From Octopus vulgaris (taxonomy: Eukaryota): a DNA stretch of 64,000 nt. Where the stretch lies: assembly GCA_951406725.2 (NCBI GenBank), contig OX597835.1, positions 26,102,001-26,166,000 of the forward strand. Reading direction: 5' to 3'. The notes beneath the pieces are model-generated. The model ran no database searches and had not been told where the DNA came from. It was given only the letters and a program-made list of their open reading frames with translations. A program made the translations under genes and the position numbers. Within the stretch, counting starts at the first letter, position 1. Every line of letters starts with the position of its first letter. Shown piece by piece: positions 6,521 to 43,259 of the stretch.

Positions 6521-6562
6521 GAAAGAATGGAGTTGAACGACGATTTAACAAAATTCCTTTAT

Positions 6563-6643
6563 TCTCGACATATGTTTCGAAGACTGCATATTCCTAATTC
6601 CGAAGGAATTAAGGGTGCGATATGCCGCCTTCTCATCAGGAAA
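6563..6643 (-). ncRNA. Type I hammerhead ribozyme, canonical core
   Basis: Minus strand: TTTC-CTGATGA-GAAG...CTTC-GAAA-CATATG-TC-GAGA; GUC cleavage triplet; palindromic stem III ACATATGT. Confidence 0.85.
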
Positions 6644-6765
6644 GACAAGGAACTTAAGTCAGCATCATGACAAACAAAAACTTTTAGCTGACTGCACTAT
6701 GGACTCCGTGTGGGCAGACATCTAAAAGTTTTTGTTCGTCATGATGCTGACTTAAGTTCCTTGTC

Positions 6766-6846
6766 TTTCCTGATGAGAAGGCGGCATAACGCACCCTTTA
6801 TTCCTTCGGAATTAGGAATATGCAGTCTTCGAAACTTATGTCGAGA
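6766..6846 (+). ncRNA. Type I hammerhead ribozyme, canonical core
   Basis: TTTC-CTGATGA(6770-6776)-GAAG...CTTC-GAAA(6831-6834)-CTTATG-TC-GAGA then AATAAA; predicted cleavage after 6842. Confidence 0.8.
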
Positions 6847-7040
6847 ATAAAGGAATTTTGTTAAATCGTCGTTCAAATCCATTCTTTCATTTATTTATAT
6901 TAAAAAAACACACAAATTTCCACACGAAAGCACGTGATCCCTGCCCTTGGCATGTAACTTCAACCGTGTTTTCTGACGTGAATTTGCTACCCGGGTATCG
7001 GTTAACCGAATTATCCATACTAGGATAATTGATTCAACTA

Positions 7041-7131: not shown

Positions 7132-7310
7132 AGGGTTCACGAAAAAAACAAAAGACGAAGACATGTGGTGTACAAAACAAACAGATGTATTAGTATAACG
7201 CTCAGGAATTGAAAAAAGTCTTTTACGTTTCGAGCCTATGCTCTTCTACAGGAAGGGACACAGAAAAAAACAAGGAGAGAAACAAGGAGAGGAAAAATGT
7301 GTGTAGTCGT
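7128..7310 (-). mobile_element. Short (TA)n-associated family A with an atypical HHR-like motif
   Basis: Homologous to 17456-17661, 24680-24880 and 39190-39323; CTGTAGAA-GAGC atag GCTC-GAAA-CG-TA-AAAG on the minus strand. Confidence 0.75.
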
Positions 7311-17455: not shown

Positions 17456-17660
17456 CTATATTAAATCGTTAGCTCCTGCACGCATTTTTTTCTCTCCTTG
17501 TTTCTCTCCGTGTTTCTTTTCTGTGTATCTTTCTGTTGAAGAGCGTAGGCTCGAAACGTAAAAGACTTGTTTTATTTCTATTCCTGAGCGCCATACTAAT
17601 ACAATTGTTTGTTTGTACTCCACCTGCCTTCGTCTTTTGTTTATTTTCGTAAGCTTCCCG

Positions 17661-22621: not shown

Positions 22622-23180
22622 ACATACATATAAGAGGAAGGATCCTGGTGGATTCCCAATATGCTAAATGTAGACCCTGTATGGTTTGACCACTAAGAAA
22701 AATTATTCTCACGAAAAATCGGCAAACGCCAGATCGTAAAGCGAGCAAGACAAATGAAAAGATACAAAATATAGTGATTAGTAACATACCATGGTTTCGT
22801 TGTTACCGTTTACATTACGTAAATGTCTGCAGATCCTCAGTGTGACCGTCATGAAAAATATAATTTGCAGAACTATACACGAGAAGTCCTCCCGACAGAG
22901 AACATGCATACAATTCTATCAATTATATTTGGGGGTGTATTTCAAATGTCTTCGTTTTGGCGTACCGAAGCCGGAAAAGACTATGCAGAAGCTTTCCGAT
23001 TAGAGAACATGATTATTTAAATTTAAATTATATGGGTAAAATTGATATTAATTAGATTAATATCAATTTAGACCAGTGGCCTAGCATATTGAAAAAAATC
23101 TGACGATTCAGAAAATTATTTTACATACATATAAGAGGAATGACCACTAGGTGGATTCCTAATATGCTAAATGTAGACCT
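22622..23180 (-). mobile_element. Family C element: unit of about 500 bp with a short terminal direct repeat and one HHR
   Basis: ACATATAAGAGGAA...GGTGGATTCC.AATATGCTAAATGTAGACC at about 22626-22677 and 23127-23179; colinear with the reverse complement of 39386-40300. Confidence 0.75.
22781..22846 (-). ncRNA. Type I hammerhead with degenerate stem II
   Basis: GTCACA-CTGAGGA-...-GAAA-CCATGG-TA-TGTTAC; palindromic ACCATGGT; GUA triplet. Confidence 0.65.
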
Positions 23181-23889: not shown

Positions 23890-24500
23890 AATAAATATTA
23901 GGGAATAAATCCAAACTTACAGGGAAAAATCAGATTTAGGATTGAATCCAATTTATAGTAAAATATTATATTATATAAATTAGAGACAAAACCACTATTA
24001 TGCAAATCAAACAAAGAAAGACTTAATCCAATACATAAATTTATTTATATAATTTAGAAATTTAACAATTATTAATATCCACTACGATCGTTTCATGTCT
24101 TCTTTTCATCACATCTTTGAGTAGTAGACATTCTTCAGGTGGTTTCAAATCTAAAATATAATCAATATTTTTAAGATATAAATAATCTATATAATCTAAA
24201 AAAATAATTTACTTATAATAAACTCTATTATTAAATATGATTATATCGAAATTGACTATAATGTTAAATATTAACTTTAATTTATAAGGTAGAAAATCCA
24301 TATTCTAATATCCATTTTAGTTTATATCTACTTATATAGATATTTGAAATGACTAATATATATAAATTATCAATGAAAAAATATATAAATATTATAATCA
24401 AAATCTAAAATCTCTATAAACTATAGTATATAATGAAAACCTAATATATTTAATTTCTGATATTTAAAGATGAAATAGCTAATTTCAAAATACAAAAAAT
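23890..24500 (-). mobile_element. AT-rich ORF-less pLTR-like element carrying an HHR
   Basis: 3' end abuts (TA)n at about 23885; contains the canonical HHR at 24079-24142. Confidence 0.6.
24079..24142 (-). ncRNA. Type I hammerhead ribozyme, canonical
   Basis: CCAC-CTGAAGA-ATGTCT...AGACAT-GAAA-CGATCG-TA-GTGG: 4-bp stem I, 6-bp stem II, palindromic stem III ACGATCGT, GUA triplet. Confidence 0.88.
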
Positions 24501-24525: not shown

Positions 24526-25514
<989 letters not shown>

Positions 25515-34857: not shown

Positions 34858-35499
34858 GAAAGAGAAACAGAAGACAGAGATATAATGCCAATCAAACGCT
34901 TATTCAAAGCAAGGAAGAACTGAAACAGTAGTTGACAACGGTAAAATACTTCACATTGTATAATTAACATGACAAATGTTGTGGTACGTATCAGTTTCTA
35001 TCAATACAAAGGCAGAAAACAAATATATATAAATGCAAAGGTGACCTGTAAGGGCAGAAAGCTCAAATTCTATATTATGTTCACATCGTGCAGTAATATG
35101 TATTGGTCAGAATGGAAACACTAATTATCAGTACGCATGCGAATACACCGGCAACATTTCAGGCATACGCTACTCAGGCTGATCTTCCTGTGTTTCTATA
35201 TAAATTAAGACAATGTCATCGGGTTAAATGAATTTCTACTTCTGAATGAAGGGGTATGTTGGATTTTCTTGTTTTGAAGGTATTTTCTGTTAACAGTATA
35301 TATACCATTAGCTATTCTTATAATCAAGTTTATATAACAAAACATTTTATAAAAGTTTTCTATTGAGACGATAGATTTCATACGTTTCGACATTTATGCT
35401 TAAGTTGTAGCGGTCTTCTGATATTACTTATATTGGAAGATTCAGGAGACCATATTATCTAATCACACAATGTATGTATACAAATGCATACAAGCATAC

Positions 35500-36839: not shown

Positions 36840-37901
36840 TAACTGCAACAACAACAACAACAACTACAATAACAACAACGGCGGCAACAACAACAGCAAC
36901 AACAACAAGAACAGCAACGAAAACCACTGCAACTGTGACATCAACGGGTACAACAACAACAACATCATATGTATTAGTAAGAACGCACACGTTTGACGAC
37001 AATAACAACAACAACAACGACTTTGTTGATGACAACAGCAAAAAGAACGACATTGGCAGGAAGAAGAAAAAGAAGGAGCATCAGAAGGTGGAGGAAGAGC
37101 AAGAGGAGTTGGAAGAGCAGGAATAGTAAGAGAGGGAGAAGGAGGAGGGGAGCAGGAGAAGGAATGATAATAATAACGATAATAATAATGATAATAATAA
37201 TAAAAAGGAGCAGGAGGATGAGGAAGAGCAAGAGGAGGTGGAAGAAAAGGAGGAGTAGGAGAAGGGGGAGAAGAAGGAAGAGGAGGAGGAGGCGTAAGTG
37301 GAGGAAGAGGAGGCGTAAGTGGAGGAAGAGGAGCAGGGAAAGAAATTAGTGATGAAGAAGAAAGAGAATAATAAGAAGCAGGAGAGGAAGAAGAGCAAGA
37401 GGAGCAAGAGGAGGAGAAGAAGGAGGAAATAGCGAAGAAGAAGAAGCAGAAATGAAAGTTATGAAGAACATGAAAAAGATGAAAGTGATGAAGTACATGA
37501 AGACGATGAAAGTGGAGATATTGAAGAAGACCAAGAAGATGAAAGAAGTACGAGGAGTAGGTGCAGGAGGTGGCAAAGAAGAAGAAGAAGAAGAAGAAGA
37601 AGAAGAAGGAGAAGAAGAAGAAGAAGAAGAAGAAGAAGAAGAAGAAGAAGAAGAAGAAGAAGAAGAAAAAAAGGAAGAAGGGGAAGAAGAAAAGAAGAAA
37701 TCAACAGTAACCACTATAAACGACAACAAGAGCAGCAGCGGTGGCAGAAATAAGAGCATAAATGTGACAACAACAAGATCTGCAACAATAATAATAATGA
37801 CAGCATCATAATGATAAACCAATGCAGCAGCAGCAGCTACATCGATAGTAATAATGATGATAATGATGATGATGATGGTGATGATGATGATGACAACAAC
37901 A

Positions 37902-37947
<46 letters not shown>

Positions 37948-38014
37948 CAACAACAACAATAATAATAATAATAATAACATTCAATCGAAAAGTGATGATG
38001 ATAATAATAATAAC

Positions 38015-38079
<65 letters not shown>

Positions 38080-38088
38080 TAATAATGG

Positions 38089-38128
<40 letters not shown>

Positions 38129-38187
38129 AGCAGCATCATAATGACAAAAGTATTAACAGCAAGAACGGCATCACAGACAACCACAGC

Positions 38188-38219
<32 letters not shown>

Positions 38220-38356
38220 AAACAGCAAGTTCGAAACTAAATGAAACGAAAGCAACAATAATAAAAAAAAAGATAAAATAAACCACAGCAAACAACAAAG
38301 GTAAATATGACAACAACAAAAGCAACAAAGCAACAAAGGCCATAACAAAGAACAAA

Positions 38357-38387
<31 letters not shown>

Positions 38388-38975
38388 ACGCCAACAACAA
38401 TAACAAATGAAATTTAATAGTCTATGTTATTTAAATTATATTGATGTAATATTGTTTAATAAACATATTGGAATTAGTGTTGGGGCTGTTGTTGTTGTTG
38501 TTGTTGTTGTTGTAGACAATGACTTTGATATCGATGTTCTTATTGTTGTTGCTACCGTTGTTATAGTTTTGTTGTTGTTGTTGATGTGGTTAATCTTTGT
38601 TTCTTTGTTTTCTTAATTTTGCAAACGTTGCATCTTTCGCATCTTTAATCAACGTAATTGTCATCGCCGTCGCCATAGTTATCATCAGCATCATCCTCAT
38701 GATCGTCCTTGGCCTCACTATCATCATTAGCAGTAGTAGCAGCAGCAGTGGCACGTGCACCGCCACAAAAAAACCCACCGTCCCCTCCACCATCATTATC
38801 GTACTCCTCGTCAACTCATCACCTCGACAGGTGACGGTCAATACCACGATCACCGCCACCACCAACACCACCACCACTGTCACCGTCACAGCCAGCACTA
38901 CAACTACTACCACAGCTACCAGAACCACAATTTCCACTACCACTACCATAACGAGCATCATCATCATCATCATCG
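36840..38975. repeat. Trinucleotide mosaic: (ACA), (GAG/GAA), (AAT), (GAT), (GTT), (CAC/CAT)
   Basis: Directly visible; poly-E/N/D/T ORFs are artefacts. Confidence 0.9.
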
Positions 38976-39189
38976 ATCTACTCTAGGCACATGCAACAGC
39001 TTGAAGTCTGTTAAAATTCTAACCGAAAACGAGATGGAATTAGTTTTTTAACAAAAGAGCAAAGTGATTAAAATCTCTCACCTAATTCAAAGGGCTTGGA
39101 CACACAGCATACATGAATTAGCGCATGTATATATATATATATATATACACATTGACTGCTGGCTCTAAAAGTTTTTGTTTTTTTAATTC

Positions 39190-39323
39190 ATCGTGTTCGT
39201 TTCTGTTGAAGAGCTTAGGCTCGAAATGTGAAAGATTTTCTCACCTTCCCGAGCGTGAAACTAATACACCGCTTTGCTGTTTATACACTTGTCCTCGTCT
39301 TTTGTTTTTCTGTAAATTTCAAC
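39190..39323 (+). mobile_element. Family A element, diverged
   Basis: TTTCTGTTGAAGAGCTTAGGCTCGAAATGTGAAAGA; 3' end abuts (TA)n. Confidence 0.7.
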
Positions 39324-39329
39324 TATATA

Positions 39330-39389
<60 letters not shown>

Positions 39390-39509
39390 GCGCACCAGAA
39401 CTAAGACATTTGAAATTATCCCTAATGTAATCGGTAAAACTAAACACGTGTCTGTTTTGGCACAGAAAGCTGGGGTTAGTTTTACAAATTACATTACCTG
39501 TTCGGAACG

Positions 39510-39587
39510 ATCGTACTGACGAAACTGCGGACAATTGGATTAAATAAGTAATTCTTTTGTTAATAGTTGAAACCGCCGGTATGTGAT
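39510..39587 (+). ncRNA. Type I hammerhead ribozyme, canonical
   Basis: ATCGTA-CTGACGA-AACTG...TAGTT-GAAA-CCgccGG-TA-TGTGAT; 6-bp stem I with G-U pairs; predicted cleavage after 39581. Confidence 0.85.
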
Positions 39588-40058
39588 TAATTCTGTTTGT
39601 TTTTATATAATTTTCATCTGTCTTGCCCGCCTAATTGTTCTGGTGTCCGCTGAATTTCCCTCTAGAGAACATTCTTTGTAGTTTGATCGTTGTTGATCTA
39701 TTTCTAGCATACGGCCGACTACCTAGCGGTCTTGCCCTTTGAATATACACATTATTAGAATTTTCTCTGATTTTTTTAGATTTTTGTATGCTAGGCTACT
39801 GGTTTTAAATTGATGTTAATTAAATTAATATTAATTTGTCTCCCTCATTATTTAAATATTAGAATAAATATGTTCTCTAATAGGCAGCACTAACCGCAGT
39901 AAATTATTTACGGCAGTTCTTCGCTTCCGGATTTTTTAGCGCGCCAGAACTAAAACATTTGAAATTATCCCTAATGTAATCGGTAAAACTAAATACGTGT
40001 CTGTTTTGACACAGAAAGCTGGGGTTAGTTTTTCAAATTACATTAGCTGTTCGGAACG

Positions 40059-40136
40059 ATCGCACTGACGAAACTGCGGACAATTGGATTATATAAGTAA
40101 TTCTTTTGTTAATAGTTGAAACCGCCGGTATGTGAT
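40059..40136 (+). ncRNA. Type I hammerhead ribozyme, canonical
   Basis: ATCGCA-CTGACGA-AACTG...TAGTT-GAAA-CCgccGG-TA-TGTGAT; predicted cleavage after 40130. Confidence 0.87.
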
Positions 40137-40299
40137 TAATTCTGTTTGTTTTTATATAATTTTCATCTGTCTTGCCCGCCTAATTGTTCTGGCGTCCGCT
40201 GAATTTCCCTCTAGAAAACATTCTTTGTAGTTTGATCGTTGGTGATCTATTTCTAGCATACGGCCGACTACCTAGTGGTCTTGCCCTTTGAATATACAC

Positions 40300-40378
<79 letters not shown>

Positions 40379-40381
<3 letters not shown>

Positions 40382-40516
40382 GATCAAAATAAAAACATGA
40401 TGCCAAGGATTCAGCGGTACATATGTTTCGGGCCTTTATTAGACAGATTTATATAGTATTCGAATGCCAGTTGTAGAGTAATATGCTTTATTAAAATGCA
40501 GTAAAAATATCACAAA
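40379..40516 (-). mobile_element. Two fused truncated pLTR-like fragments (half-HHR plus a family B piece)
   Basis: Minus strand GGCCC-GAAA-CATATG-TA-CCGC at about 40416-40436; TAGAGTAATATGCTTTATTAAAATGCAG matches family B. Confidence 0.55.
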
Positions 40517-40552
40517 AAATCTGTAACTCAGAATTTATATATATGTATAACG

Positions 40553-40825
40553 GTCATATGTTCGATTACCGGCTGCGCTTGATGTCCTTGTGAAAGACAC
40601 TTTGTTTTTCAGGTTGCTCCAGTCAACTCAGCTGGTAAAAATGAGTAGTACCTGTAATTCAAAAGGCCAGCCTTGTCACATTTTGTGTCACGCTGAGTCT
40701 CCCCGTGAACTAAGCAAAGAGTACGCATGTCTCTGAAGTACTCAGCCACTTGGACGTTAATTTGTTAATTTTAGGAACATGCTGTTCCGATGATCGGATC
40801 AACTGGAACACTCATCGTCATCACC
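40553..40825 (+). mobile_element. CORE-like SINE family S4, subfamily b
   Basis: GTTCGATT B-box; GTCCTTGTGAAAGACACTTT; TGCTCCAGTCAACTCAGCTG; GTACTCAGCCACTTG; shared with 54680-54955. Confidence 0.7.
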
Positions 40826-40838
40826 CCACAGAATGTCT

Positions 40839-40961
<123 letters not shown>

Positions 40962-42749
40962 AGAGAGAGAGAGAGGGGAGGGAGGGTGAGATAGAGAGTG
41001 ATGTAATTAGATATATAGGTAAATAGATAGATACATAGATAAAGAAATATCTTTAAAAATTTACGTATGCCTGTGTGTGTAAGTATATAACATAATGAAT
41101 GATTTTCTATATATAAAACCAGAAATACACGCATAAATATTCACATGCAGATATATCATAATAAATATGATGATGATGATAATAATAACAACAACAACAA
41201 CATTTTTTTTTATTGAAACCATACATATTGCAAACGTGAGTTTCGACTTTTACCAACAGTCACGGAACGAATAAAAGAAATTTATCAATATGCCTCATAT
41301 TTACGTGTGTAATAAAAAATAAACCGTTGAATGTATGACGTGTTGATTTGATTGAAAACGCATGGCAATGTAACTCATATCTACTGGTGTTTATGTATTT
41401 GGAAATATTTCAATGAAAATTTCTATTTAAGTCGGCTGAAAACGTTGAGTATGTGACGCATTTTAAAACGCATCTTCCAGTTGATTTCCAGGGTTTATTA
41501 TGCTAAAAGGTTGTCGAATCTTTAAGCATTTATGAATATTTAAAAACAGAATCGTAATTAGGCGAAAAATATATTGGTTCTTGACTAGCGTTAAAATTTC
41601 CTGTGGAACTCATCGTTGCCTTGTGTATAGTGTTTGATCTCATTTAATATATGTAAAATGAGTTCATAGTTCCTGATAGTACTATATACAAAATATCACA
41701 TTTACTTTGATGTTATAAAGTATTTTAAGACTTCTGAAAGTGTTTGTGTGTTAATTAATTCTTACCTTGAAAGGAAACTTAGTTTTGTCGATATAACTCG
41801 TAGTAAATGAATCGTTAGCTTCAAATACTTTTGCATAGTACTCTTATGGTTTCGACAGACTACTTATTTCGTGTGAAATTTGCGAGTTTAAAGCAATTAC
41901 ACGAAACGAAGAACACTGAGCACAAGTGTTTACAGTTTTTGATATTCCTGTTCCTTATTACTGTAGTACAGAACAGAAACTATATTCAACTTTATTCCGA
42001 TTAAATCCTCATACACCGTTGTTGATTTTTATAAAACCATTTTCTTAATGAGTTAAAAATAGATTTAGTGATACTTGTACTCGCAGTTAGACTACTATAT
42101 TCTTCTTTCCGGAACCAGATAACTTATGTTGTTATTTGTGTGCAATTAATCTTTTTCTAAAAACCCACTCAGTTTTAATGCTTTATGATAATACGGTAAG
42201 ATTTGTTGAGGGTAGACACCCCTATCATGTACCGGATGACCGTGATTTTCCACAACCATCACGGCGACAACCACCACTACCACTACCCCACCCCATCATA
42301 TTAGTATCACCACCACAATAATCATAGTCATTGTTTTTCGTCTCGTTCTCCTGCTTATCCTCCTCATCCTTCCCCATCATTATAGCACCAGGCAGAGGTC
42401 AAGATGACCATCATCTACCTCAAAACAACAGGTTCTGCTTTAAACCTAGAAATATCCACCTCTAAACAAACTATTTAAGTTCTTTTTTTCCAATTGTAGC
42501 TGTTCAACTTAATTTAGAAGACTGAGACACAAAAGAGCAGCGAAGAGATCTTGATAGAATTCAAGAAAATAATTCAAAACTTTGCGAATTTCCAAGAAAA
42601 TATTTCACTGATCGGACAAAAGCAAAATTTTGTTTGAAATTAAGAGTGACACAACTGATTTGTTTAACTAACACCGTTTTCTTCTCTCTACATCTGCTCC
42701 TTCGTCTCCATTTTCTCTTTCATGTTTTTGCACATCATCACCATCCCTT

Positions 42750-43259
42750 CCTCCTCCTCCTCCTCCTCCTCCTCCTCCTCATCATCATCATCATCATCAT
42801 CATCATCGTTACCAGACAGCTACCCTCAATCAAACAATATCACCACCACAGCCACCACTACTACCACCAACACCACCACCACCATACCACCACAACCACC
42901 ACCATACCACCACCACTACTACCACCAACACCACCAACACCACCACCACCACCACCACCACCACCATCATTGTCGTCTCTCTAGGACTGATAGTGAAGAA
43001 GCTATGTTCAGTGGCGCTGTTTGTAGAGGCTTTGGTTGTAGCGGTGTTTGTGGTGGTGGTGGTGGTGATGGCTGCAGTGGCGATGGTGGCAATAGTGGCG
43101 ATGGTGGCAATGGTGGCGATGGTGGTTGTGGTGGTGATGGCGGCGGTTGTGGTGCAGCAATATATATAAAGATGGGCGTGTAACAAACGGCAAGCAAGGA
43201 AAAAAAAAACATTGTGAGAAGCGAAATAATAAAAAGAATAACAATAACGATGATGACGT

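Follow-up and report, generated by a model that had tools for sequence, protein, structure and literature searches.

What is the ORF-less tandem repeat at 39386..40301 (+ strand) of the window, the 64,000-nt stretch of Octopus vulgaris DNA analysed here, and how do elements of its kind enter the genome? The insertion comprises 1.67 laps of a 549-nt unit, truncated at its 5′ end and lacking an inverted arm, with a complete first lap (39386..39934, unit positions 1-549) and a partial second lap (39935..40301, unit 1-367). Positions 39386-39752 recur at 39935-40301 as a direct repeat with 12 substitutions and no indels (3.3% divergence, 96.7% identity), which bears out the originally proposed repeat and its period of 549 but sets the repeat length at 367 bp, not 366. 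The 916-nt element has a GC content of 36% and, as had been claimed, no ORF, its longest Met-initiated frame being 35 aa. The (TA)n described on both sides is likewise present, with tracts at 39324-39386 and 40292-40378, of which 39324..39385 and 40302..40378 form the left and right parts of the target. A rough age of ~4-5 My can be given for the laps, assuming that they were identical at birth and that the octopus repeat calibration of JC 0.09 = 25 My (PMC13282606) applies.

Each lap contains a type I hammerhead motif, at 39510..39587 and 40059..40136 (both + strand), with predicted cuts after 39581 and 40130. In the first, stem I pairs 39510-15 with 39582-87 and encloses the core (39516-22), a long stem II, the GAAA at 39569-72 and a near-palindromic stem III. 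The core sequence CTGACGA starts at 39516 and 40065, once per lap, and both motifs have a 5-bp proximal stem II, GAAA, a 3-bp stem III with a 3-nt loop, a GUA cleavage site and a 6-bp stem I, confirming the complete hammerhead that the original prediction placed in each repeat. Besides the stem I difference already noted (U-G versus C-G), the two differ in distal stem II, where 39543 is A and 40092 is T. Their 10.1-11.1 pair is A-U, the usual hammerhead pair at this position being G-C. A strict hammerhead descriptor matched exactly these two motifs in the window and none in 200 block-shuffled windows. For the Infernal/Rfam check suggested alongside the original prediction, cmscan of 37000-43000 (E≤5) returned 19 matches, with no hammerhead family among them. 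In the minimum free energy fold of the isolated motif, the three-way junction did not form. Being open at stem I, the fold has type I topology and not the type III of plant LTR retrozymes. The 549-nt monomer that the two predicted cuts would release (39582..40130, + strand, a putative RNA) is more stable than shuffled sequences (z -4.06), none of 100 shuffles being equally stable. The distal stem II loop (39541-39550 and 40090-40099) includes TAAGTAA, a motif that a sister family, described below, shares despite different pairing there; roughly two in three copies fit the splice-donor consensus at this motif, the window copies not being among them. The idea that loop II holds a conserved 5′ splice site was rejected, the G being missing in one third of copies, including both window copies.

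Searched against the 2.8-Gb genome, the unit returned 2654 first-look candidates; 39 of these were scored, and the total is not a copy number. Four DNA queries yielded 120 loci that resolved into 74 distinct insertions, or 73 after removal of L070, a segmental duplicate of L067. These are mostly 85-97% identical to the unit and, as the top-scoring matches among some thousands of candidates, are biased towards long and close copies. The family bears out the retrozyme-like reading proposed originally, being a dispersed, ORF-less tandem unit with a conserved type I hammerhead; the permuted ends expected of it did not hold, as set out below. We found no published description of a cephalopod retrozyme, although supplements, Repbase or Dfam may hold the family, and the word 'hammerhead' is absent from the main text of the 2026 Octopus vulgaris repeat annotation (PMC13282606).

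Across the family, the ribozyme is better preserved than its surroundings. Of 68 copies, 63 keep all 11 invariant core positions and H17, and the majority letter has a mean frequency of 0.99 in the core versus 0.87 elsewhere, with N7 and H17 varying freely; position 1.7 is U in all 68. In an alignment of 66 copies, from which 7 of 73 pattern matches were excluded as outside the family, 96.3% of cells pair, compared with 29-42% in slid controls, and both sides have changed in 6 of 24 pairs, three of four in stem II. None of 500 shuffles attained the covariation score, whereas 37 and 82 of them attained the two measures that tally pairs or pair types. Most of the covariation stems from three subfamilies that exchange entire base pairs in stems I and II, so the tally counts sequences rather than independent events. 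Taken together, the conserved core and covarying stems argue with good confidence that the ribozyme fold is under selection.

Stem III is near-palindromic, 7 nt or 6 nt long, and mismatched at its centre. As a hairpin, it has a computed energy of +0.4 kcal/mol or, in the 6-nt variant, is sterically impossible, whereas the corresponding homodimers reach -10.2 and -6.6 kcal/mol. Because the hairpin is unstable or impossible and the homodimer stable, cleavage probably needs a dimer of two ribozymes. At least two sense hammerheads are found in only 7 of the 74 insertions, the copy at 39386..40301 among them, so most copies would be unable to excise a monomer.

The ends of the insertions bear on how the family moves. 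Two sites in the unit serve as fixed right ends. Site A (unit 362-367, unpaired and A/U/C-rich) follows a short GC hairpin and is passed through in the first lap (39713..39752, +); site B (unit ~474) follows a 15-bp AU hairpin (39806..39859, +) and is not an end in this copy. The 3′ end of the copy lies at site A (40296..40301, +), a putative reverse transcription start. Located 166-171 and 278 nt past the cleavage site, A and B are both unpaired A/U-rich stretches just 3′ of a hairpin, adjoining (TA)n. Right ends fall at A or B in 70 of 73 insertions (30 at A, 40 at B), a count in which four ends with small internal deletions were reassigned by motif and the left end of L069 was hand-set as 'other'; raw alignment gives 67/74. 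Loci retrieved with queries lacking both sites give 33 of 38 (p ~2e-31 against a uniform distribution). The 5′ ends are scattered. The genome-wide permutation check proposed earlier therefore speaks against permuted ends, since only the 5′ ends vary while the 3′ ends in these 70 insertions are fixed.

An inverted 5′ arm is present in 33 of 73 insertions. The arms vary in how far upstream they reach, often passing the cut site and exceeding one lap, and join head-to-head. The outward ends of these two-armed copies comprise 18 A/B, 7 B/A, no A/A, no B/B and 8 unclassed, so that all 25 classifiable copies combine one A with one B (Fisher p 2e-6). Many copies, including 39386..40301, retain one arm only; a possible short left-arm remnant occurs in 4 of 40 non-inverted copies, this one counting among them by 4-7 letters only. 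(TA)4 or longer adjoins the right flank in 59 of 74 insertions versus 296 of 2133 background windows. Candidate target-site duplications are seen in 5 of 74, two of them abutting and microsatellite-like, and (TA)n targets hide such duplications. Classical twin priming, in which the sense arm halts at the second primer, was rejected, as the arm coordinates do not abut. No accumulation of 5′ ends is seen at the cut site, with none at unit position 197 and four at 204-208.

This pattern resembles insertions by Penelope-like elements (PLEs), described as having an inverted 5′ copy, a tail on one end only and microsatellite targets (PMC8557442, PMC3846280). For the anole PLE enzyme, internal starts at two sites and extension of both strands are reported, and a dimer is predicted (PMC11167929). 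From the fixed A/B ends, inverted 5′ arms and (TA)n targets, mobilisation of the family by a PLE is very probable, and the suggested integration by a PLE reverse transcriptase (RT) thereby appears likely.

To look for the partner element, tblastn with 22 PLE proteins gave matches at 5 of 74 family loci and 3 of 30 sister-family loci, with no ORF running into the unit, and the flanks of the 74 family insertions share no common extension. The unit contains no ORF combining RT and GIY-YIG domains, as an autonomous EN+ PLE would, and is not an autonomous PLE. Nor did adjacency to a PLE ORF, raised earlier as a check, emerge, as none of the 74 insertions is joined to one and their ends are fixed. 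Three ORF-bearing PLE families were examined, none with sequence or terminus homology to the unit. The most active PLE seen is a very young autonomous family (L165-L175) with a 4.27-kb tandem unit, a 775-aa RT + GIY-YIG frame and TA targeting, for which all 150 scored matches have 99-100% identity; its ends lie +143 and ~+175 from the cut site, ~30-37 nt apart versus ~110 in the ORF-less unit. It carries a variant hammerhead core with C at position 4. A GC-rich family (L121-L130) has 6.2-kb tandem units with open frames of 884-1008 aa and long CA-rich spacers, and the descriptor search found no hammerhead in it. The third was seen as a fragment. Within the window, 35020-35190 holds a degenerate GIY-YIG remnant of a PLE.

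Two readings would deny the unit a life of its own. A local tandem duplication or misassembly of a dead repeat carrying a chance ribozyme-like motif would agree with the lack of an Rfam hammerhead match, and 39386..40301 is known from the assembly; the 12 differences between its laps and the recurrence of the layout, with an identical wrap-around, at many other loci make an assembly artefact unlikely, and with the core conservation, the covariation and the absence of descriptor matches in 200 shuffles, the family data bring this reading close to refutation. Alternatively, the unit could be the pseudo-LTR (pLTR) of an unseen autonomous PLE, its copies being 5′-truncated or tandem pLTR by-products. 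Every insertion feature is indeed a PLE feature, animal retrozymes are described as related to pLTRs (10.64898/2026.07.22.740005), and just 74 top-scoring copies were examined among some thousands of candidates. Against this stand the 48 of 74 insertions in which unit position 549 leads straight back into position 1, so that the unit closes on itself, the failure of tblastn and flank comparisons at the family and sister loci to reveal an adjoining PLE ORF or shared extension, the unrelated termini of the three PLE families and the existence of a 506-nt sister family that is colinear over the whole unit and likewise ORF-less. A pLTR origin is thus improbable.

The nature of the template is a closer question. 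The element could instead be a PLE-mobilised, non-autonomous sequence whose template is linear RNA, transcribed by read-through of tandem copies and left uncut, with the ribozyme kept as an inherited PLE cis-element or for some other step and any circles arising as by-products. The cut site is crossed by 60 of 74 insertions, and the sense arm exceeds one unit in 32 of 73. Tandem laps differ by 3.15% (149/4735), which does not exceed the 3.5% (121/3470) of inverted arms; laps within one insertion share subfamily alleles, and 128 of 133 lap differences are private to one insertion. Laps therefore appear to have been identical at birth. Cut-site crossing and identical laps are equally expected from a homogeneous multimer, and such a master would mimic the circle pattern, given that the nearest outside copy, at an average divergence of 1.8%, is closer than the sister lap. 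A linear template is also favoured by a 2.9-unit copy (L005) and by the anole PLE, which is reported to use unprocessed RNA in vitro (PMC11167929); there, ribozyme cleavage needed protein and was dispensable for insertion in vitro. In Xenopus, one of nine retrozyme dimers is reported to have cleaved in vitro (10.64898/2026.07.22.740005). However, an ageing multimeric master would transmit its lap differences, of which only 5 of 133 recur, and no long arrays occur among the top-scoring family matches. Public runs, of which 7 of 24 listed were examined as contigs, add a weak hint: in run X5, whose RNA status is guessed, a relative is represented by a 573-nt contig with a self-overlap of ~30 nt, giving a closed 543-nt cycle. 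In run X12, whose RNA status is likewise guessed, a family variant with ~34 other letters over 358 spans the unit and bridges the cut site, and traces of it occur in runs X18 and X9; this bridging is ambiguous, as read-through of any genomic copy gives it too, and level, strand and ends cannot be read from contigs. In the seven runs, no contig matches 39386..40301 at 99% over its length. An A-to-G write-back of RNA edits was rejected, as the strand bias of an edited RNA stage is absent from private changes (27 vs 43, p 0.81) and from shared changes (15 vs 10, p 0.06). On balance, these sequence comparisons mildly favour a circle over an uncut multimer as the template, and the linear reading appears rather unlikely.

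The best explanation, which we regard as probable, is that the family is a non-coding, non-autonomous animal non-LTR retrozyme that likely borrows a PLE-type enzyme, targets (TA)n and is probably copied from a re-ligated RNA circle. Copies with at least two ribozymes would be transcribed, probably by read-through, as no promoter was identified. Pairing of the two ribozymes through their near-palindromic stem III would lead, in the window copy, to cuts after 39581 and 40130; closure of the 549-nt monomer by a host ligase is then predicted. Judging from the copy ends, a PLE RT/GIY-YIG protein would then cut a (TA)n tract, and cDNA would be started at the unpaired internal A/U-rich sites A and B, one per DNA end. 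A more specific and tentative version, which we hold at somewhat less than even, is that a PLE dimer grips one 549-nt ribozyme-made circle at two fixed sites separated by ~110 nt and copies it into cDNA simultaneously from the two ends of the cut target, rolling round the circle.

In kind, the family is a further animal non-LTR retrozyme, a type of element already known. At the sequence level, it displays a type I hammerhead in each unit of a short ORF-less tandem with GC below 50%, dispersed without an RT ORF. Like the metazoan non-LTR retrozymes described from coral, Mytilus and axolotl (PMC7229834), it is a low-GC, ORF-less tandem unit with one type I hammerhead each, highly self-paired, dispersed and coexisting with PLEs, and its short stem III implies dimer cleavage, as in the axolotl retrozyme. 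At 549 nt, it is longer than the retrozyme RNAs of 170-400 nt given in that account but lies inside the 51-972 bp range of a vertebrate survey (10.64898/2026.07.22.740005). Most octopus copies, in contrast to metazoan retrozymes, comprise under two units, and fixed ends, inverted arms and (TA)n targeting are not among the features that we found described for those elements. Circular RNA has been demonstrated for metazoan retrozymes (PMC7229834), whereas the octopus unit is known from DNA sequence.

The likeness to EN+ PLE insertions, as portrayed in PMC8557442, PMC3846280 and PMC11167929, extends to partial tandems, 5′ truncation, an inverted 5′ copy, two fixed 3′ ends, a tail on one end, microsatellite targets and a hammerhead upstream of the RT starts. 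The octopus unit differs in having no ORF, a tail of ~110 nt compared with 30-40, and a hammerhead whose CUGANGA core is complete and whose long stem II covaries. The dimeric hammerheads reported for PLE pLTRs and amphibian satellite 2 (PMC4209133) similarly have a helix I of 6 bp and a helix II of at least 4 bp. Those hammerheads have a short helix III with a palindromic loop and are active as dimers; the octopus stem III is similarly short, and dimer activity is predicted for the octopus ribozyme. It differs from them in that stem III is a 7-/6-nt near-palindrome with a central mismatch and stem II is lengthened by two further helices.

Earlier proposals on the enzyme that mobilises animal retrozymes drew on co-occurrence (PMC7229834) and on phylogeny (10.64898/2026.07.22.740005). 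Here, the PLE footprint is read directly from the insertion ends of an ORF-less hammerhead family. Sites A and B thus provide two testable RT starts, and the 549-nt unit could serve as substrate in the PLE assay already established in vitro. If the reading of a dimer on a circle is true, the family would be a natural minimal substrate showing how retrozyme circles enter genomes, and would show the origin of the tandem-plus-inverted insertions of PLEs.

The family has relatives both elsewhere in the genome and within the window. The ORF-less sister family has a 506-nt unit that is ~68% identical to the 549-nt unit, and 3579 first-look candidates; one locus lies at L128 8700-9270 (-), G000:C3:151521699-151522269. 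Its stem III contains a perfect 6-nt palindrome, and its two ends lie at the same distances from the cut site. The pairing of one A with one B end holds in 8 of 9 classifiable copies out of 13, with classes assigned by eye, the exception being a complex locus. In DNA run X13, far more contigs match the AU-hairpin region of the unit than its ribozyme region, an excess that suggests many sister families; an 80% relative of the AU-hairpin region lies at 22996-23088 (-) of the window. An older, common repeat (39193-39325) supplies the left (TA)n tract as its tail; it has relatives at 7144-7261, 17530-17642 and 24687-24811, and its copies carry a decayed minimal hammerhead-like motif. A hammerhead of a different family, with a palindromic loop III, lies at 24138 (-). 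Finally, 6560-6900 holds an inverted pair of another hammerhead family, with cores at 6639 (-) and 6770 (+), which combines a palindromic loop III with the same 5′-inversion form as the 549-nt family.
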